Below are positions 1 to 5,907 of a stretch of 5,907 bases of DNA, one piece after another. Under the pieces are notes generated by a model. The model saw only the letters and a program-made list of their open reading frames with translations, made no database searches and was not told where the DNA came from. Made by a program: the position numbers and the translations under genes. Positions within the stretch are counted from its first letter, which is position 1. Every line of letters starts with the position of its first letter. The stretch covers positions 1-5,907 of the IMG/VR virus record IMGVR_UViG_3300045988_012538; one strand, 5' to 3'. This stretch comes from a virus.

Positions 1-119
1 ATTTTTTTTGTAACGTATCCTGCAACATATCTATATGTTTCTGGCACTGCTTGTGCTATTTGTATTTGACCCATGCCCCATAGTTTTTCCAGCCATTTAC
101 TTGTGTAGTATCCGTTGTG
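1..119. repeat. Terminal direct repeat, copy 1. Overlap from linearising a circular genome; identical to 5789-5907.
   Basis: Base-by-base comparison: attttttttgtaacgtatcctgcaacat...gtgtagtatccgttgtg occurs at 1-119 and again at 5789-5907 with an offset of 5788. The Rep reading frame runs in phase through the junction. Confidence 0.97.
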
Positions 120-662
120 TTGTATCTTGTATAGGTGTTCCAGGTCTGTTGGTTGCCATCCGTACAATATCATGTGATAGTGTGGTCTTGCTGTTTGTTC
201 TCCGTATTCCCCTGCTACAAAATAGCGTAATTTGCCCCTATAAGCCTTCCTGAGACGTTTTAAGAACTTTTGAATGTCGGGATACAGTAATGTTTGGACG
301 CTTTCAGGGCGCTTCTCTCCCGGTTTCCAGACGTATTGTACTTTTCGCATGATTTCGCCTGTGTTTACTATCATGCCTGGTACATGGTCATCATCATAGG
401 TTAGTGTGATAAACCAAACTTCTTCTTTTGGATAGTCTCGTGCTTCTAATTCTATTCGTGTTGTCCAATCCTCCCTTTGTCTGATTCTGCATCCGATGCA
501 CTGTCCGCATGGTATTAGCATGATATCTTTTCTAAACATTAAATCTTCATATTTTAGCTGTTTTCCCGCTAACTGAGAATAGCGGGAGAGTGTATACACC
601 CTCCCGCTAATTTCTTTGTCGTTCGGGTTGTACAGCCTAATTAATGGCTTGTAACAACTCAC
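1..662 (-). CDS. VP4: Replication initiator VP4 (HUH rolling-circle endonuclease), N-terminal part. It continues through the circular junction into 5788..5431, for 339 aa in total if it starts at GTG 662.
   Basis: My translation of the minus strand: (GTG)SCYKPLIRLYNPNDKEISGRVYTLSRYSQLAGKQLKYEDLMFRKDIMLIPCGQCIGCRIRQREDW...VWFITLTYDD...RPHYHMILYG...WGMGQIQIAQAVPETYRYVAGYVTKK. HUH motif HYH is at 182..174. The paired catalytic tyrosines YVAGY are at 29..15. The frame is open from 671 downward, with no ATG upstream of 539. GGAGGT lies 11 nt upstream of the GTG. The ORF is absent from the track because it has no stop inside this end of the window. Confidence 0.9.
   Translation of the reverse strand, partial: MSCYKPLIRLYNPNDKEISGRVYTLSRYSQLAGKQLKYEDLMFRKDIMLIPCGQCIGCRIRQREDWTTRIELEARDYPKEEVWFITLTYDDDHVPGMIVNTGEIMRKVQYVWKPGEKRPESVQTLLYPDIQKFLKRLRKAYRGKLRYFVAGEYGEQTARPHYHMILYGWQPTDLEHLYKIQHNGYYTSKWLEKLWGMGQIQIAQAVPETYRYVAGYVTKK
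564..610. repeat. Nucleotide-level repeat and inverted-repeat cluster inside the Rep 5' coding region.
   Basis: TCCCGCTAA occurs at 564-572 and 602-610. Its complement TAGCGGGA lies between them at 580-587. The 10-nt palindrome GTGTATACAC is at 590-599. The two direct copies fall in different codon phases of Rep. Confidence 0.8.
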
Positions 663-1495
663 TTTTTGATTTCACCTCCGCCGCCGCCATGCTCTGTTCC
701 GCTTTTGCTCTTGTGCGTTTTGCTTTGCGATTTTGTTGCTTTTTCTATTGCTTTTCCGGTATCGCTTCCGATGTTTGTTAAAGCCTTTGCTAATCCATAA
801 GGCGTCATTTGCGTACTACTGAGCATCTGTTGCCAGCTTTGTGATGCGTTGTACCAGTCGCTTTTACTCCAGCTATTGCTTTCGTATGCGTTCGGTACAA
901 ATCCACCGCTTCTGCTTACTCCTAGTGCGCTACTGCTTGCAAGTCCCATGCTTGCTCCACTAATTGTTCCTGCTGAACCGCCTGGTGTGCTTGCTCCACC
1001 GTTTGCAAAGGCTAGAATTGGATTCAGTCCAGCTTTTTTCATATCTTCAACGGCTCTTTGATATGCTGTATTGCTCATGTGCTCTTGCCATTCGCGGTTT
1101 GCTAGTGCTTCTGCACTGTTGTAGTTCATTGCTACGCTGTTTTCAATGTGGTTGTATACGCCTTGCATGATTGCTTGTAAGGTGTTGTAACCCATCTGTT
1201 TTAACATGCTTTGACTGTTGTATTTGCCTTGCATGGCCGCTTCTTGCCCTTGGTATGCATATGCCTGTTTAAGCCAGTCGTTTACCTGTTGAACGTTTGT
1301 TCCTGAATGACTTCCGCTTTCTGAATGACCGCCGCCTTCGCTTGTACTGCCTCCGCTACTTTGGCTGTTACCGGTTTGACCCCATCCGCCGAATATTCCA
1401 GCAACGTCTTTTGCCGCTCCGGCGACTGTTCCGATTGTATTTGCTACGTTTCCCGCTACGTTTAAGCCGGTTAAAATTCCTGATAATACACTCAT
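659..1495 (-). CDS. VP2: DNA pilot / minor capsid protein VP2.
   Basis: 278 aa with an ATG start. It has a Gly/Ser-rich N-terminal third and the conserved microvirus VP2 core REWQEHMSNTAYQRAVEDMKKAGLNPILAF. It sits immediately after VP1, as in gokushoviruses. Confidence 0.9.
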   Translation of the reverse strand: MSVLSGILTGLNVAGNVANTIGTVAGAAKDVAGIFGGWGQTGNSQSSGGSTSEGGGHSESGSHSGTNVQQVNDWLKQAYAYQGQEAAMQGKYNSQSMLKQMGYNTLQAIMQGVYNHIENSVAMNYNSAEALANREWQEHMSNTAYQRAVEDMKKAGLNPILAFANGGASTPGGSAGTISGASMGLASSSALGVSRSGGFVPNAYESNSWSKSDWYNASQSWQQMLSSTQMTPYGLAKALTNIGSDTGKAIEKATKSQSKTHKSKSGTEHGGGGGEIKK

Positions 1496-1497
1496 TT

Positions 1498-1523
1498 AAA
1501 AATAGCCCGGATTTCTCCGGGCT
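1498..1523 (-). terminator. Hairpin plus T-run between VP1 and VP2; candidate intrinsic terminator or attenuator.
   Basis: Minus strand reads TAA GAAAGGAGGA AGCCCGGA-GAAA-TCCGGGCT ATTTTTAA ATG. This is a perfect 8-bp GC-rich stem (1504-1511 / 1516-1523) with a GAAA loop, followed by ATTTTT, in the sense orientation of the operon. Confidence 0.6.
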
Positions 1524-1533
1524 TCCTCCTTTC

Positions 1534-3207
1534 TTACAGTTTGTACAAGCCTGGCACACTGTACAATGGCATCCGTCTCGTGGTTTTGTTCGTTACTCGG
1601 ATTGCGCCGAAAAACTGCGGCTCATTCTGTACGATGAGTGTACGCGCAATTTCTTCTTTTCCTTCTGCCATCCAGCTTTGCGACAGTGTTGGTACGGCTG
1701 AATAGTAGTCGGCATAATGCCAAAAGTCCAGTGTTCCTGTTGCGTTGCTTCTCATCAGACCGCTTACTCGGTTTGGTTTCATTCTGTAGTCTGCCCAGGC
1801 TTCTTGGTATCCGAATGTATCTTCATCTGATGCTGCGCCGGTGAGCATGATTTCTTTCTTTTTTACAGGCTGCTCTCCTACGTTTGCGAACTGTGGTACA
1901 TAATAGTCCAGTCTGTCCGTTCTGCTCCAGAATCGTTCCAAGCCTTGCTGGTAACTGTGATTGTGTCGTACGCAACATACTCCGATTATAAAGCCGTGTT
2001 CTTCAAAGCTCTTTGTGAAGGAACTTTCATTGATTGGCGTTACTGACATTGCGCCAGTTTCACCGATAGGTGTGTCTGTATTGCTCTGCTGTCCGCTTGT
2101 CTGCACGATTTGGTTCATATTGACATGGTATCTGCCACCGCCAAGGTATTCCGGGATTTGTACAGTTTTATCCGAGATTACAACGTCCCACAGTGCTTGT
2201 ACCTGTTCGCGGTATCTGCTGCCGCCTCGTGCAAGTGCTTCGTAGTACTGCTGTACTGCTACCGCTTTTCTTAGGTCGTTGATGGTTGCTGCTGTTACAC
2301 TGCTGAGGTCTGCGCCTAGGTATACTACGCTATGGTCTGTGTTTGTTCCGTCTCCGATGTTTAAGTATGCTGACCCTGTGCTTCCATCTTCTGCGATTGC
2401 ATACAGTCTGTTTTTGACGTTGTCCGGGTTTGTGCTTCCGTCAAAAAAGCTGTTTGCATATAGAAGTGTCTTTTCTTCAAATTTATCATTTGTGAATCCG
2501 CTTATTTTTGCATTGCCCTGCATCGGCAGTGTCACTTCCGGGCCGCGCTGAGGGTACGGCAAACAGCTGGTAAAGTAGTCGTGGAATTTGTTTACAGGTA
2601 AGCATCTTCCTCCCTTTATTGCTTCCAGCAGTGTTCTTTCTATTTCATCATTGCTTGTGTCGAGGTATGTCACGTCCTCATCACCTGTTTTAATTACTGC
2701 CGCATTATCAACGTTTTCATCTCTGAAAAATTCGTTCCAAATTTTCACATATCCTCTGATGGGTAATGCGTTGACCTCGAATTTCCCTTTAATTTTTGTC
2801 GGTACTCCCATGTAGTCCAGGATTGAATTTTCGTATGGTAGTGCAGCTTGATTCGTACCCATTATTTTAATTTTGGGTACTTTGTATTCCTTTGTTGGCA
2901 TCCATGGCGTGTCTTCTACTTCTCCCATGAACTGTTTGAAATTATCCCATAAGATGCGATTCGGACAATAGAAGTAGTAGAAGTCGATAAATGCGTCGTC
3001 CATCACCGGATACTTTGGCGTGGTCATTCTGATGATTGCTGCCGTGTCCACGCTGAAGGTATCGCCCGGTAATACCTCATCAACATAGAATGGAATCAGT
3101 TTGCCGGAATCGAACGTTGTGAGAATATTCTGGTCGCGGTTGAACCGTGTCCTACTTGCTTTCATTTCCGGAATCTGGTTAAAGTGTCTTTCATTGTTTC
3201 GATTCAC
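1534..3207 (-). CDS. VP1: Major capsid protein VP1 (phiX174 F-like capsid family).
   Basis: 557 aa. The N-terminus HFNQIPEMKASRTRFNRDQNILTTFDSGKLIPFYVDEVLPGDTF is the hallmark microvirus capsid N-terminal block. The start codon is GTG at 3207..3205, with AAGGAGG 7 nt upstream. The first ATG (M15) would remove conserved residues. Confidence 0.95.
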   Translation of the reverse strand: MNRNNERHFNQIPEMKASRTRFNRDQNILTTFDSGKLIPFYVDEVLPGDTFSVDTAAIIRMTTPKYPVMDDAFIDFYYFYCPNRILWDNFKQFMGEVEDTPWMPTKEYKVPKIKIMGTNQAALPYENSILDYMGVPTKIKGKFEVNALPIRGYVKIWNEFFRDENVDNAAVIKTGDEDVTYLDTSNDEIERTLLEAIKGGRCLPVNKFHDYFTSCLPYPQRGPEVTLPMQGNAKISGFTNDKFEEKTLLYANSFFDGSTNPDNVKNRLYAIAEDGSTGSAYLNIGDGTNTDHSVVYLGADLSSVTAATINDLRKAVAVQQYYEALARGGSRYREQVQALWDVVISDKTVQIPEYLGGGRYHVNMNQIVQTSGQQSNTDTPIGETGAMSVTPINESSFTKSFEEHGFIIGVCCVRHNHSYQQGLERFWSRTDRLDYYVPQFANVGEQPVKKKEIMLTGAASDEDTFGYQEAWADYRMKPNRVSGLMRSNATGTLDFWHYADYYSAVPTLSQSWMAEGKEEIARTLIVQNEPQFFGAIRVTNKTTRRMPLYSVPGLYKL

Positions 3208-3602
3208 TTTTCTTCCTCCTTCACTTCAGATTCTTTTGTCGGTTCTTCCTTTGCCATTTTTTGAAGTTCTTTAAGCTTCATGGCGTTTGCCTGTGCGGTC
3301 GCTACCATGCGGTGATACTCGTGAATATTCTGCGGAAATTCGGTGATATCTACTTCTGTTCCGTTTAGTGCTCCTTCGGACAGACTTTTCAGAAACTGCG
3401 GGTCAAAACTTGCTTTCCGGACAATGTTTTTGATGTCGCATTCTTCCGCATAGCTTTCGATTTCCTGCTGTATGTCGATTGGTTCAGTTTCTTGTAACTT
3501 TTCTTTGCCTTTCTCGTCTTTTGTCCAGACGTATTGTTTTCGCATTTTTTCGCCCGGTTCAGAAAAGAAGGGCTTTCGCCCTTCTTCGTATCGTTTATTC
3601 AT
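3204..3602 (-). CDS. VP3: Internal scaffolding protein VP3.
   Basis: 132 aa, acidic and helical, located directly upstream of VP1. The segment GTEVDITEFPQNIHEYHRMVATAQANAMKLKE resembles the D-I/T-x-x-P ... A-x-N block I recall from gokushovirus VP3. GGGAGGG lies 8 nt upstream of the ATG. Confidence 0.72.
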   Translation of the reverse strand: MNKRYEEGRKPFFSEPGEKMRKQYVWTKDEKGKEKLQETEPIDIQQEIESYAEECDIKNIVRKASFDPQFLKSLSEGALNGTEVDITEFPQNIHEYHRMVATAQANAMKLKELQKMAKEEPTKESEVKEEEK

Positions 3603-3834
3603 GCGGCTTGCCCTCCCAGACCTTTTCGGTGTCGTTCGTGAATGTGCCGATTTCGTCTTCGAATACTGCCAATTTGAAGCCGGTATAGTCGCCCGGCTCC
3701 TGTCCGATAAAGGTTTTTTCGTCCTTTGCCATTACATTGCACATACGTGCAAAGGTTGCGTTGTTTTTGTTTTCGCCTACCCATGCATAGCACTTTGCTA
3801 CGTTGTCCCAGACGCCATAGTAGTTGTGTTTCAT
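3595..3834 (-). CDS. Conserved small microvirus non-structural protein (VP5-like), 79 aa.
   Basis: MKHNYYGVWDNVAKCYAWVGENKNNATFARMCNVMAKDEKTFIGQEPGDYTGFKLAVFEDEIGTF... fits the pattern Y-x-V-x-D ... N-x-x-x-A-x-R-x-F ... P-x-DY-x-L ... G-x-FD-x-x-x-G, which I recall from small gokushovirus proteins. ATG 3834 is preceded by AAAAGGAGAAAAAACA. The track's longer form starts at a GTG (3870) and would overlap the basic ORF 3851..3973. Confidence 0.65.
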   Translation of the reverse strand: MKHNYYGVWDNVAKCYAWVGENKNNATFARMCNVMAKDEKTFIGQEPGDYTGFKLAVFEDEIGTFTNDTEKVWEGKPHE

Positions 3835-3850
3835 TGTTTTTTCTCCTTTT

Positions 3851-3973
3851 TTACAGCCGGATGCCACCACGCATAGGTTTCTGGCTGAGGTTGATGTTTT
3901 TGGTTTTGCGTGCGGTTACGTTAAACATACGGCGGTCTTTTGCGCCGTTCATGGTTTTACGATGCCGTGCCAT
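3851..3973 (-). CDS. Small highly basic DNA-binding / packaging protein (phiX174 J-like, gokushovirus ORF8-like), 40 aa.
   Basis: My translation: MARHRKTMNGAKDRRMFNVTARKTKNINLSQKPMRGGIRL*. It has an Arg/Lys-rich N-terminus and the C-terminal MRGGIRL typical of these proteins. AGGGAG lies 8 nt upstream of ATG 3973. The stop TAA is followed 16 nt later by the next gene's ATG. It is below the 60-aa track cutoff. Confidence 0.72.
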   Translation of the reverse strand: MARHRKTMNGAKDRRMFNVTARKTKNINLSQKPMRGGIRL

Positions 3974-4184
3974 TGTTATACTCCCTTCTCATCAGTTCCA
4001 GTTCTATAGCGTTTGCAAATCTCTTCATTTGCCAAATTTCTTCTATCAGTCTTTTTGCATCTTCGATCTTTGACATTTTTCTAAGCATTTTGTAATTGCT
4101 ATCGATTTCTTTGTATTTTCGTGTGAGCAGTTCTTTTAGTGCTTCTTCGGTCTGGTCTCTTACGTTCCATGTTTTGTTCATCAT
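3957..4184 (-). CDS. Hypothetical helical protein, 75 aa.
   Basis: MMNKTWNVRDQTEEALKELLTRKYKEIDSNYKMLRKMSKIEDAKRLIEEIWQMKRFANAIELELMRREYNNGTAS. AAGGAG lies 7 nt upstream of ATG 4184. The track's 95-aa version starts at a TTG (4244) with no SD. I recognise no family. Confidence 0.55.
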   Translation of the reverse strand: MMNKTWNVRDQTEEALKELLTRKYKEIDSNYKMLRKMSKIEDAKRLIEEIWQMKRFANAIELELMRREYNNGTAS

Positions 4185-4188
4185 GGTT

Positions 4189-4311
4189 TTACTCCTTTTC
4201 CTTTTCGTTGATGCTATCATGCAGTGCGTGATAGATTTCGTCAAGCTTTTCCAGAATATCCATCATCAGCCGGATTGCCTGCTTGACGTCTTTAATGGAA
4301 ATCAGTGCCAT
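4189..4311 (-). CDS. Hypothetical small acidic protein, 40 aa.
   Basis: MALISIKDVKQAIRLMMDILEKLDEIYHALHDSINEKEKE*. AAAGGGGGT lies 5 nt upstream of ATG 4311. It fills the gap between the peptidase stop (4313) and the next ATG (4184) exactly. It is below the track cutoff and I recognise no family. Confidence 0.45.
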   Translation of the reverse strand: MALISIKDVKQAIRLMMDILEKLDEIYHALHDSINEKEKE

Positions 4312-4312
4312 T

Positions 4313-4702
4313 TTATACCCCCTTTCTGTATTTGCTGGTTCTCACGTCTAAGTGTACCCAACTTTTGTATACGATAATGCCGCATTCATTCGGTGTGATT
4401 TTATTCAGTTCGTTGGCAATTTCTTTTGCGCTCATTCCATTTACTCGAATGTCTGCAGCCATACCGCACATATGGTAACTGTATCTTGCTCCCCCGCATT
4501 TCTTGTTCCACTCTGGTGTTCTGTATCCGCTGGTGATGATGACAGGTTTTTCTGTTTTGTTTCTGAGAATGTCTAAGATTGATACGAGGTGTTCGTCTAT
4601 AAATACTACTTGAGAGCCGTCTTTACATGCAAATTCTTTTACTTTAAAGTGCTGTCCTACTTTTTCGTTTGCGTCTCTTGCCATGAAATAGCTTTTAATC
4701 AT
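4313..4702 (-). CDS. Peptidase M15 family zinc D,D-/L,D-peptidase (cell-wall hydrolase, putative endolysin), 129 aa.
   Basis: The sequence SGYRTPEWNKKCGGARYSYHMCGMAADIRVNG ... WVHLDVR matches the M15A/VanY-like signature: SGYR..N..GG..S.H-x6-D, plus a second HxD. The track start at 4711 is a TTG. ATG 4702 has GAAGG about 9 nt upstream and overlaps the upstream stop as ATGATTAA. Confidence 0.85.
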   Translation of the reverse strand: MIKSYFMARDANEKVGQHFKVKEFACKDGSQVVFIDEHLVSILDILRNKTEKPVIITSGYRTPEWNKKCGGARYSYHMCGMAADIRVNGMSAKEIANELNKITPNECGIIVYKSWVHLDVRTSKYRKGV

Positions 4703-4877
4703 TTTCGTCAACCTTCTTTACTTCCGTTATTTCGTATCTGTCAAGCCCGTGCCCCGTTTCGTCGATTAACCGTTGTACAGTAACGTTTCTTGCGTCTACA
4801 GGGTCAATCGCGACAACCATATAGCAATCGTGGATTTTTTCAGTGTTATTGTATACGTACACGTTGTATCTCTTCAT
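4695..4877 (-). CDS. Hypothetical protein, 60 aa; first gene downstream of the large intergenic region.
   Basis: MKRYNVYVYNNTEKIHDCYMVVAIDPVDARNVTVQRLIDETGHGLDRYEITEVKKVDEND. It has an ATG start with GAAAGGA 12 nt upstream. Its stop overlaps the peptidase start. I recognise no family. Confidence 0.55.
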   Translation of the reverse strand: MKRYNVYVYNNTEKIHDCYMVVAIDPVDARNVTVQRLIDETGHGLDRYEITEVKKVDEND

Positions 4878-4908
4878 GGCATTGCACCATCCTTTCCCCT
4901 TCTATTTT

Positions 4909-4920
4909 ATTATATGTCAA
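4909..4920 (-). promoter_or_regulatory. Candidate sigma70/sigmaA-type promoter element for the gene string.
   Basis: Minus strand reads TTGACATATAAT. A consensus -10 TATAAT (4914..4909) directly abuts a consensus TTGACA (4920..4915), about 32 nt upstream of ATG 4877. The two hexamers are not at canonical 17-bp spacing, so only one can act in a given promoter. Confidence 0.35.
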
Positions 4921-5061
4921 TAGCTTTTAAAAGGGTTTTTGCGTTTTGTAATAATTTTGTAACCAGCCTGTACTCCTTTGTTTTGAATGGCGCTTTAGCG
5001 CCTTGCCGTATGGAGCGCAGCGGAATTCGGCTGAATCCGTTCCTTTTTAGCGCTGTGCGCG

Positions 5062-5228
5062 TTTTCAACACTTTTAACACTTTCAACAGGTTTTCCACAA
5101 AATGTTGCACAAATGTTTTCGTCATTTTGACGGACTTTCAACATTTCAACAAATTTTCAACAAAACTTTCAACAGTATTTTTCGCTTTTTTCCTACGTTT
5201 TAGCGTTAAATTTTAGTACTTTTCAACT
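5062..5228. repeat. Array of same-orientation TTTCAACA 9-mers; iteron-like, resembling DnaA boxes.
   Basis: Copies: TTTTCAACA 5062, CTTTTAACA 5071, CTTTCAACA 5080, TTTTCCACA 5091, CTTTCAACA 5135, ATTTCAACA 5143, TTTTCAACA 5154, CTTTCAACA 5166, TTTTCAACT 5220. Spacings within each cluster are 8-12 nt. Confidence 0.85.
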
Positions 5229-5271
5229 TTTTCACTATCTCTACTACTACTCCTACAACAAGTTAATATTA

Positions 5272-5318
5272 TATCGCGCGTGCGCGCGTGCGCGCTATCG
5301 CGCGTGTGCGCACGTGCG
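5272..5318. repeat. GC-rich, strictly alternating pyrimidine-purine (CG/TG) tract forming an imperfect 20-bp inverted repeat.
   Basis: Sequence: TAT-CGCGCGTGCGCGCGTGCGCGC-TAT-CGCGCGTGTGCGCACGTGCG. The alternating runs are 5275-5295 (21 nt) and 5299-5318 (20 nt). The 11-nt direct repeat TATCGCGCGTG occurs at 5272 and 5296. Arms 5275-5294 and 5299-5318 pair as 16 Watson-Crick plus 4 G-T on the + strand. Confidence 0.9.
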
Positions 5319-5324
5319 AATTAG

Positions 5325-5358
5325 CTTACTTGATAGACTGGATAGACTGAATAGGCTG
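5325..5358. repeat. CTTACTTGATAG 12-mer (copy 1) leading into three tandem 9-mers.
   Basis: GATAGACTG is at 5332-5340, GATAGACTG at 5341-5349 and AATAGGCTG at 5350-5358. The 12-mer CTTACTTGATAG at 5325-5336 recurs exactly at 5398-5409. Confidence 0.9.
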
Positions 5359-5382
5359 ATACATGGAGCCTTTAGACGACAA

Positions 5383-5425
5383 TCACCTAGCCCAGTTCTT
5401 ACTTGATAGGTACTGGGCTAGGTGA
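5383..5425. repeat. Perfect 14-bp inverted repeat with a 15-nt loop; candidate origin stem-loop and/or Rep 3' structure.
   Basis: TCACCTAGCCCAGT (5383-5396) and ACTGGGCTAGGTGA (5412-5425) are exact reverse complements. The loop TCTTACTTGATAGGT carries copy 2 of the 12-mer. The structure lies 5 nt from the Rep stop codon (5431-5433). Confidence 0.85.
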
Positions 5426-5430
5426 CACCG

Positions 5431-5907
5431 TTAAAGTGTCCCCCTCTTCTTCATCTGCTTCTTTATCACTCTTTCTTTTGTCTTGCATTGTTCTGCAAAG
5501 TCTGTGTTTTCATACTTTAGCCTGTTTTCTGCGATTGCTGCTGCTTGTCTGTTCTGTTTAATTCTCCACAATCTTTGTGGGTTTTCTGCTTCCATCATTT
5601 TTTCATAATAACGTGGAATTTGTGCGTGTTTGCCGTTTGTGCATTGGATGTATCCTTGTCTCCAGATTTCTGCTTTGTGTTCTTGATAGTAGTGGTCTCC
5701 TAAGCCTGGCTTAAGGCTCATACATGCGAAAGGCTTTGTTTGCCCTAGTTCGTAGTATATGTTTGCTTTTTGGCCGTCAATTTCGTACATTTTTTTTGTA
5801 ACGTATCCTGCAACATATCTATATGTTTCTGGCACTGCTTGTGCTATTTGTATTTGACCCATGCCCCATAGTTTTTCCAGCCATTTACTTGTGTAGTATC
5901 CGTTGTG
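5431..5907 (-). CDS. VP4: Replication initiator VP4, C-terminal part. It is 5'-truncated by the window end, and 5789-5907 duplicates 1-119.
   Basis: The track ORF 5431..5862 (MGQIQIAQAVPETYRYVAGYVTKKMYEIDG...) is in frame with the 1..662 segment: 662 + 358 nt = 1020 nt = 340 codons. YVAGYVTKK is the superfamily I Rep two-tyrosine motif, comparable to phiX174 protein A. Confidence 0.93.
   Translation of the reverse strand, partial: HNGYYTSKWLEKLWGMGQIQIAQAVPETYRYVAGYVTKKMYEIDGQKANIYYELGQTKPFACMSLKPGLGDHYYQEHKAEIWRQGYIQCTNGKHAQIPRYYEKMMEAENPQRLWRIKQNRQAAAIAENRLKYENTDFAEQCKTKERVIKKQMKKRGTL
5789..5907. repeat. Terminal direct repeat, copy 2; identical to 1-119.
   Basis: Same comparison as copy 1. 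It implies a circular unit of 5,788 nt. Confidence 0.97.

Follow-up and report, generated by a model that had tools for sequence, protein, structure and literature searches.

A conserved hairpin beside the Rep gene of gut gokushoviruses, a probable rolling-circle origin in inverted orientation

Background

What purpose is served by a perfect hairpin that lies just beyond the Rep gene of a gokushovirus, on the strand opposite to every gene? The DNA in question, hereafter the window, comprises positions 1 to 5,907 of IMG/VR record IMGVR_UViG_3300045988_012538. Its hairpin occupies positions 5383-5425 next to the stop codon of Rep, also called VP4, and displays in its loop a motif resembling the replication origin of phiX174. 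An initial annotation, made from the letters of the window, had proposed a candidate origin module at this place, composed of tandem repeats and a stem-loop. Comparison across gokushoviruses showed that the hairpin and an adjoining box form a deeply conserved element, for which the best explanation, at a probability of about 0.62 and by analogy with phiX174, is that it constitutes the viral-strand (rolling-circle) origin with the nick site of Rep.

Results and discussion

The hairpin and its adjoining box

The two arms of the hairpin, TCACCTAGCCCAGT and ACTGGGCTAGGTGA, are complementary over 14 perfect base pairs and enclose the 15-nt loop TCTTACTTGATAGGT (Table 1). Folded as single-stranded DNA, the hairpin reached -16.4 kcal/mol against -5.8 +/- 2.0 for shuffled sequences (z = -5.4; opposite strand, z = -5.9). 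The loop carries the motif TACTTGATAG at 5400-5409 of the + strand, and the right arm runs into the box GGTGACACC, whose TGACACC portion occupies 5423-5429. The element adjoins Rep, being situated 1 nt past its stop codon on the strand opposite to it. All that the initial annotation had stated on the letters of this locus was confirmed, i.e. both copies of the 12-mer, the three tandem 9-mers and their split version, the perfect 14-bp repeat around a 15-nt loop and the adjacency to Rep.

A small inverted repeat, GACAC / GTGTC, extends across the Rep stop codon at 5424-5440 and shares positions with the TGACACC box; it offers a pairing alternative to the extended lower stem of the main hairpin. 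No gathering-score match to the Rfam 15 families was obtained anywhere in the window. Likewise, a XerCD dif-like site (28-nt dif with two 11-nt arms) was rejected, the best match to the E. coli or B. subtilis dif showing 11 mismatches, which is the level of shuffled sequences.

Conservation and covariation of the element

A search with the intergenic DNA returned 52 phage records, 14 of which were inspected. The block GCCCAGTACC-TTACTTGATA-GGTACTGGGC-TAGGTGACACC was almost unchanged in all 14 of these GenBank relatives, even in those with unrelated sequence on both flanks or a differing Rep C-terminus. Where relatives had different flanks to the left and to the right, the box of TGACAC type was likewise invariant. 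By pattern scan, 51 motif-bearing microvirus contigs were retrieved from IMG/VR, with Rep 55-95% identical to that of the window; all of them displayed a nearly invariant element located 0-8 nt past the Rep stop, on the strand opposite to Rep and VP1. The stem varied in a compensatory manner, as in the pairs GCCCAGTAC/GTACTGGGC, GCCAAGTA/TACTTGGC, GCCTAGT/ACTAGGC and CTCCGCCAAGTA/TACTTGGCGGAG. Within an alignment of 26 examples, stem positions were paired in 91.8% of cells, versus 24-43% when partners were slid; compensatory changes affected 7 of the 8 stem pairs, and none of 500 shuffles reached the observed covariation score. The initial annotation had reasoned that a stem kept without its loop would point to a simple terminator. 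Relatives displayed the opposite, an invariant loop and a stem that drifts with compensatory changes.

A covariance model, R1, was built from the same 26 examples. It gave the window element 64.3 bits (E = 1e-13) and had no other match in the window except a weak one on the minus strand over the same hairpin (19.9 bits, 5383-5419). Of 80 genomes collected for a VP1 resembling those of Chp2, the window and phiMH2K, 66 matched, as did 43 of 78 collected with another VP1, which makes 109 of 158 environmental gokushovirus genomes combined. R1 also matched Chp2 (42 bits) and three gut relatives with a coding-strand element, which are about as far from the window as the clade of KX513864. Among the matches CTTGAT and TGACAC were near-invariant, with CTTG and TGACA at least 90% conserved over 74 aligned matches, and the stems had little sequence in common. 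Of the features by which the R1 type is defined, the window displays stem covariation and the loop (T/C)ACTTGAT with a TGACAC box about 3 nt past the stem, but not the position on the Rep/VP1 coding strand upstream of Rep. An invariant loop combined with a one-sided invariant box and a drifting but always paired stem is expected of a protein recognition site presented by a hairpin, unlike a terminator. The hairpin, its loop TACTTGATAG and the box GGTGACACC (to 5429) are thus a deeply conserved cis element.

One contig, L180 (5,545 nt), carries two different origin-like elements, 660-716 and 5180-5236 (49.5 and 45.7 bits), 4,520 nt apart. The contig could stem from a genome with two origins, or its assembly could be chimeric or concatemeric.

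Register with the phiX174 origin

The architecture of the phiX174 origin is well established: a recognition sequence, a spacer and a distal binding part. Positions 4299-4328 of J02482 read CAACTTGATATTAATAACACTATAGACCAC, in agreement with the origin as given in the initial annotation, and the record places the origin of viral-strand synthesis at 4306. The nick lies between G4305 and A4306 (bioRxiv 10.64898/2026.07.25.740675). An ungapped alignment started at the A of ACTTGATA gave 17 of 30 identical positions between the window and the phiX174 origin. They share the 8-nt core ACTTGATA spanning the nick, then CTA and then CACCG at equal distance, and the positions that match phiX174 coincide with those that are invariant among gokushoviruses. 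By analogy, the + strand of the window is predicted to be nicked between G5405 and A5406, the TGACACC box is read as a putative counterpart of the distal binding part, and GGTGACACC is a candidate Rep-binding 'key'. The enzymes are comparable as well: Rep displays the HUH motif HYH at residues 161-163 and the tyrosine pair Y212-VAG-Y216-VTKK, where phiX174 protein A displays HFH and Y343-VAK-Y347-VNKK.

The chance of such an 8-mer match had been put at 1-2%, a figure that is too generous: it is valid for one 8-mer specified beforehand, yet any 8-mer of the 30-nt origin could have been selected afterwards. With 2 mismatches allowed, at least two matches to the 12-mer were encountered in 10 of 200 shuffles. 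An 8-mer or 12-mer match in a single genome is therefore weak, and its significance comes from the comparison across genomes.

The element resembles the 30-nt ori+ of phiX174 and other Bullavirinae (CAACTTG/ATATTAATAACACTATAGACCAC) in its nick core, in the spacing of CTA and CACCG, in the succession of recognition sequence, spacer and distal binding box, and in the Y-x3-Y-x2-K pair of the cognate HUH protein. Yet phiX174 has its origin within gene A, in coding-strand orientation and without hairpin, whereas the element of the window is intergenic and antisense to the genes, its spacer being the right arm of a covarying hairpin.

Orientation of the element

Genomes were called 'same' when the element lay on the coding strand of Rep and VP1 and 'opp' when it lay on the opposite strand. 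Of the 113 outgroup genomes with a match, i.e. those outside the gut clades, 112 had a coding-strand element, which typically preceded Rep by about 200 nt. The clade of the window displayed the inverted arrangement in all 66 of 66 members. In a second gut clade, that of KX513864, 64 of 69 genomes carried the variant GGCACAAG-CTTCCTTGTCTAT-CTTGTGCC-GGT-TGACACC on the non-coding strand, and no genome had it on the coding strand. A further inverted element was found in L190 (IMGVR_UViG_3300026518_000187, 4110-4168), where the gene order is Chp2-like and the element is inverted in place; L190 is a single environmental contig without close relative (best VP1 identity 67-68%). In KX513864.1 (L298, 5004-5508) the module composed of TTTCAACA, CTACTAC and the CG tract is flipped relative to the genes as compared with the window, and the origin hairpin is still antisense, situated just upstream of Rep instead of downstream. 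Rough neighbour-joining trees placed the two gut clades together on Rep, as sister to 'same' genomes, and L190 nested among 'same' genomes. At least two inversions, apparently independent, are suggested by these trees.

Being asymmetric, the element has an unambiguous orientation, and the tight constraint on that orientation argues for a strand-specific function. When a rarely inverted element of this kind is found reversed, either the 'opp' clades displace and package the other strand or their Rep came to recognise both halves of the site anew; the latter is disfavoured because the sequence of the element and the catalytic motifs are unchanged. For the antisense position of the motif, the initial annotation had offered three options, a coincidental resemblance, a relevant motif on the complement or an unusual strand polarity. 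The last of these is now favoured by the inversion of the whole asymmetric element relative to nearly all other gokushoviruses.

Base composition

Single-stranded DNA phages have a packaged strand that is rich in T. Measured on the coding strand at 4-fold sites, the frequencies of A and T were.07 and.61 in phiX174,.25 and.51 in Chp2 and.28 and.65 in SpV4. The five genes of the window, pooled, displayed the mirror image of these three phages (A.50, T.12). For VP1 of the window (A.53, T.08) the difference A minus T was +0.45. Its median was -0.09 in the 'same' genomes (n=109, of which 3.7% exceeded +0.3), +0.32 in the window clade and +0.26 in the KX513864 clade, and L190 ranked first of 159 with +0.75 (A.80, T.05). 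Two sister contrasts were available: the gut 'opp' clades were A-rich versus L296, L299 and L300, which were T-rich, and L190 differed in the same way from its neighbour L162 (A.22, T.49). The skew thus flipped in both contrasts, hinting at a T-rich strand that spends time single-stranded and at displacement or packaging of the antisense strand, since this is the direction then expected. As a decisive test of polarity, base skew was rejected because some 'same' genomes are A-rich; its value is supporting, by way of the sister contrasts.

Proposed mode of action

If the element is the origin, the inverted repeat would extrude or breathe in the supercoiled replicative form and expose TACTTG/ATAG. 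Rep would dock on the TGACACC box, and Y212 or Y216 would cut the + strand at the predicted site, remaining joined to the 5' end. A host polymerase would then extend the 3' end and displace the + strand; after one round the second tyrosine would cut the regenerated site, the ends would be joined and the circle packaged. As no gene shares the strand on which the whole asymmetric element reads, the phage would displace and package a strand antisense to its mRNAs. That two large gut clades (human, pig, monkey) and, independently, L190 reversed their rolling-circle origin and encapsidate the strand complementary to mRNA, as negative-sense Microviridae, is a proposal to which we give even odds.

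Alternative explanations

The position 1 nt past the Rep stop and the G+C-rich stem would suit an intrinsic terminator of the Rep-terminal transcript, with a merely coincidental likeness to phiX174, and the mRNA-sense 3' flank indeed displayed at least 6 U in 10 nt in 32 of the 53 'opp' genomes with the element. Yet terminators do not keep an invariant 10-nt loop and a one-sided invariant box, loops of 10-15 nt are atypical for them (15 nt in the window), and in more than 100 'same' genomes the element stands upstream of Rep with no T-run after it. A terminator scan made no call in the window either, where the tail reads TTGTCGTC. Termination as sole function is very unlikely and was rejected on the invariant loop and box and on the position in 'same' genomes; a secondary terminator role in the inverted clades is plausible. 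Another possibility is a complementary-strand origin, where host primase, RNA polymerase or PriA would recognise the hairpin of the packaged strand and start the conversion of single-stranded into double-stranded DNA; the PriA site of phiX174, the primase hairpins of G4 and the single-strand origins of plasmids are comparable. A stable single-stranded hairpin with conserved loop and covarying stem would look alike, the orientation dependence fits, and hairpins of other small microviruses were tentatively so read (PMC9865509). This explanation, which has the same implication for the packaged strand, is nonetheless unlikely: the invariant loop core is the Rep cleavage core of phiX174, in register with the rest of the origin, and a site for a host factor is not expected to be invariant over Chlamydia, gut and freshwater hosts.

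The true origin might also reside elsewhere, e.g. at 564-610 or at AACTTGTTGTAG, the hairpin being another strand-specific or protein-binding signal (packaging, a switch of VP5/protein-C type or a host factor). The intergenic region does contain further conserved blocks, namely the TTTCAACA repeats, a CTACTAC...CAACAAGTTA block and the CG tract. These are clade-specific, however, whereas the hairpin element spans the subfamily, and R1 found nothing else in the window beyond the weak minus-strand match. The cluster at 564-610 (TCCCGCTAA...TAGCGGGA...TCCCGCTAA, in the N-terminal coding region of Rep), which the initial annotation had offered as alternative nick site, proved to have neither a CTTGAT-like motif nor an R1 match. 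Fluit, Baas and Jansz reportedly found in 1985 that the 30-nt phiX174 origin alone suffices for rolling-circle replication and packaging, which also counts against a separate signal, and we regard this possibility as quite unlikely. There is finally the case of an origin with conventional polarity, in which the cut by Rep of these clades would fall on the coding strand, in the complementary loop CTATCAAGTAAG. The hairpin forms on both strands, A-rich composition occurs in some 'same' genomes too, and to our knowledge all characterised microviruses package the coding strand. Yet the TGACACC box would then be 5' of the nick as its complement, with both recognition parts to relearn, while the catalytic region of Rep and the sequence of the element are unchanged and the skew flips in both sister contrasts. 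We judge it improbable.

Several observations weigh against the assignment as an antisense rolling-circle origin. Nicking, the nick position and the packaged strand are inferred from conservation, covariation, the register with the phiX174 origin, the inverted orientation and the skew flip. Beyond the 8-mer core, the match to phiX174 is modest and mildly above chance, with 9 of 22 further positions identical versus 5.5 expected. R1 gave no score with phiX174 and SpV4 and only 10 bits with phiMH2K. About two independent inversions are available, one of them represented by a single contig, L190, and the skew is not diagnostic, since L187 (+0.46), L214, L180/L183 and phiMH2K are A-rich with a full or weak element on the coding strand. 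Packaging of the antisense strand would send rolling-circle forks head-on against transcription. The coding-strand motif AACTTGTTGTAG (complement of 5254-5265) resembles loop variants of other genomes, which makes it a candidate alternative nick site; it is conserved, without hairpin and without TGACAC box.

The upstream 12-mer and the 9-mers

The 12-mer CTTACTTGATAG occurred exactly twice in the window, at 5325-5336 and within the loop at 5398-5409, both on the + strand. The loop copy is followed by GATAG-GT-ACTG (5405-5415), and the unit of the three tandem 9-mers equals this origin segment, GATAG(GT)ACTG, which begins at the predicted nick. The segment of about 58 nt that holds the upstream copy, the 9-mers and the remaining insert (5325-5382) was confined to one subclade, 17 of the 52 clade relatives displaying 1-3 units, and the window was the only genome with three. 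In relatives the upstream copy often reads ATTTGATAG, with ATTTG replacing ACTTG; the loop never varies. The insert was conserved solely among relatives with a Rep identity of about 84-96% and was replaced elsewhere by unrelated sequence or absent. Most relatives are devoid of the whole segment, and in others the CG-rich tract is joined directly to the hairpin. Neighbouring duplications such as ATTATTTGATTATTTG also occur among relatives. As judged from the sequence, the upstream 12-mer and the 9-mers are a lineage-specific, slippage-prone partial tandem duplication of the nick-distal half of the origin. The 9-mers may provide extra Rep binding or be merely tolerated, and are at most accessory.

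An origin layout of iterons beside a stem-loop had been proposed initially, after replicons such as the circular Rep-encoding single-stranded (CRESS) DNA viruses. The stem-loop withstood comparison, being conserved across more than 100 gokushoviruses and Chp2, and the 9-mers and first 12-mer did not do so as iterons. As general iterons the 9-mers were rejected, given their restriction to 17 of 52 relatives and their absence in many with Rep more than 85% identical. Nor is the CRESS-like layout a conserved architecture here: what is conserved along with the hairpin is the TGACACC box on its 3' side, to which the initial annotation had not pointed.

Comparison with related and analogous elements

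Chp2 (AJ270057, 2898-2955) and more than 100 uncultivated gokushoviruses display the same succession of stem, loop with (T/C)ACTTGAT, stem, about 3 nt and (G)TGA(C/T)A. A motif search of reference phages located it in Chp2 as CTAGCGTATAACAG-TCTACTTGAT-CTGTTATACGCTAG-GTGATAGC on the coding strand of the VP3-ORF8 intergenic region. The window departs from Chp2 and 111 others, whose element is carried by the coding strand and usually precedes Rep by about 200 nt. SpV4 carries a shorter coding-strand version, CTAAAC-TTGATAAGCAAG-GTTTAG-GTGA, and phiMH2K (L136, 3290-3347) a weak one, TTCGGCTAC-GGACCCTACTTGTTGTAA-GTAGCCGAA-C-TCACAG, with the score of 10 bits given above.

Origins of CRESS-DNA viruses and geminiviruses are alike in being served by an HUH Rep, in displaying the nick motif in a hairpin loop that is cut toward its 3' side and in bearing short tandem repeats beside the hairpin, here in one subclade. 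Their orientation relative to rep varies, and families are typed by it. In contrast to them, the loop TCTTACTTGATAGGT lacks the nonanucleotide NANTATTAC, and Rep of the window has two tyrosines and no superfamily 3 (SF3) helicase domain. The repeats differ as well, since those of the window are not conserved in relatives and are copies of the nick-distal origin segment, not separate binding sites. Reekeekee- and roodoodoo-microviruses also have conserved hairpins in an intergenic position beside Rep, in which the loop is identical and the stem changes in a compensatory manner (PMC9865509); the authors inclined to complementary-strand priming, and a connection to orientation or to the phiX origin is not reported there. 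Those hairpins differ from that of the window in sequence and belong to another clade.

Our literature search found no description of the element, of a gokushovirus replication origin or of antisense packaging in Microviridae; older papers on Chp2, SpV4 and phiMH2K were outside this search, and an earlier mention of the Chp2 hairpin is possible there. The cultivable E. coli gokushovirus EC6098 did not appear among 60 of the 3,570 records from a VP1 protein search, and no search by name or accession was made. As a kind, the element is known, being read as a hairpin-borne HUH origin with a core homologous to the phiX174 origin; what surprises is its inverted orientation.

Genome layout and other features of the intergenic region

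The window represents a circular gokushovirus genome of 5,788 nt (43% G+C) with a terminal redundancy of 119 nt, positions 5789-5907 being a copy of 1-119. Its nearest GenBank records are gokushoviruses from human, pig and monkey faeces, with nucleotide identities up to 85%. All recognisable genes lie on the minus strand (Table 1). The M15 peptidase presumably is a lysis enzyme, and related GenBank records already annotate such a gene. The sole long non-coding stretch is 4878-5430, which displays the origin-like element at its Rep-proximal end.

Table 1. Positions of the origin-like element, its neighbours and the genes in the window
Feature	Position	Strand	Remarks
Origin hairpin	5383..5425	+	Arms 5383-5396 / 5412-5425, loop 5397-5411 (TCTTACTTGATAGGT)
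ACTTGATA core	5401..5408	+	Same letters as phiX174 4301-4308 around nick G4305/A4306
GGTGACACC box	5421..5429	+	3' of predicted nick; shares last 5 nt of right arm in window genome
Partial upstream copy of origin core, CTTACTTGATAG--ACTGG	5325..5341	+	Equals 5398-5416 minus 2-nt GT; without left arm, without TGACACC box
Three tandem 9-mers (G/A)ATAG(A/G)CTG	5332..5358	+	GATAGACTG / GATAGACTG / AATAGGCTG; sole exact RATAGRCTG matches in window
Remaining subclade-specific insert (ATACATGGAGCCTTTAGACGACAA)	5359..5382	+	Between 9-mers and hairpin
Major capsid VP1	1534-3207	-	Pfam Phage_F, E = 2.5e-135
VP2	659-1495	-	
Scaffold VP3	3204-3602	-	
VP5	3595-3870	-	
Peptidase M15	4313-4711	-	Pfam PF08291, E = 2e-23
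Rep/VP4, 339 aa	complement of 5431-5788 joined to 1-662	-	Pfam PF23343, E = 2.9e-17
Rep/VP4, 3' part	5431..5907	-	Stop codon 5431-5433
Rep/VP4, 5' part	1..662	-	GTG start 660-662, overlapping VP2 stop

Three further features were recorded in this stretch. Nine TTTCAACA-like 8-mers, six of them exact, are clustered at 5063-5228 (+); the cluster is conserved in relatives and lies on the coding strand in KX513864. One sequence at 5090-5098, TTTTCCACA, fits the DnaA-box consensus TTWTNCACA. The cluster could act as a promoter array, or else as a region for a host initiator or for complementary-strand priming. KX513864 and relatives with a Rep identity as low as 55% retain the block CTACTACTACTCCTACAACAAGTTAATATTATA (5241-5273), the complement of which contains AACTTGTTGTAG. 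An alternating purine-pyrimidine CG/TG tract, partly palindromic, follows at 5274-5319 (arms 5274-5294 / 5299-5319, 81% complementary). Tracts of CG type, differing in sequence, stand beside the origin throughout both gut clades. The CG/TG tract may adopt Z-DNA or a cruciform and so affect supercoil-dependent opening of the origin.

Conclusions

Gokushoviruses rank with the most abundant human gut phages, and almost none is cultivated. If the proposed function is true, the element composed of the hairpin, TACTTGAT and TGACACC is the long-missing gokushovirus origin, one that orients microvirus genomes and predicts, for thousands of them, which strand is packaged. With an origin signature common to the subfamily, thousands of metagenomic genomes could be annotated from a natural zero point and in a natural orientation, the biochemistry of Rep would have a defined substrate, and vector building a handle. 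Antisense packaging, if true, would be an exception to the textbook positive-sense microviruses, every described microvirus being otherwise. Replication would then run head-on to transcription, and strand-specific mutation pressure would explain the A-rich codon usage of these phages.

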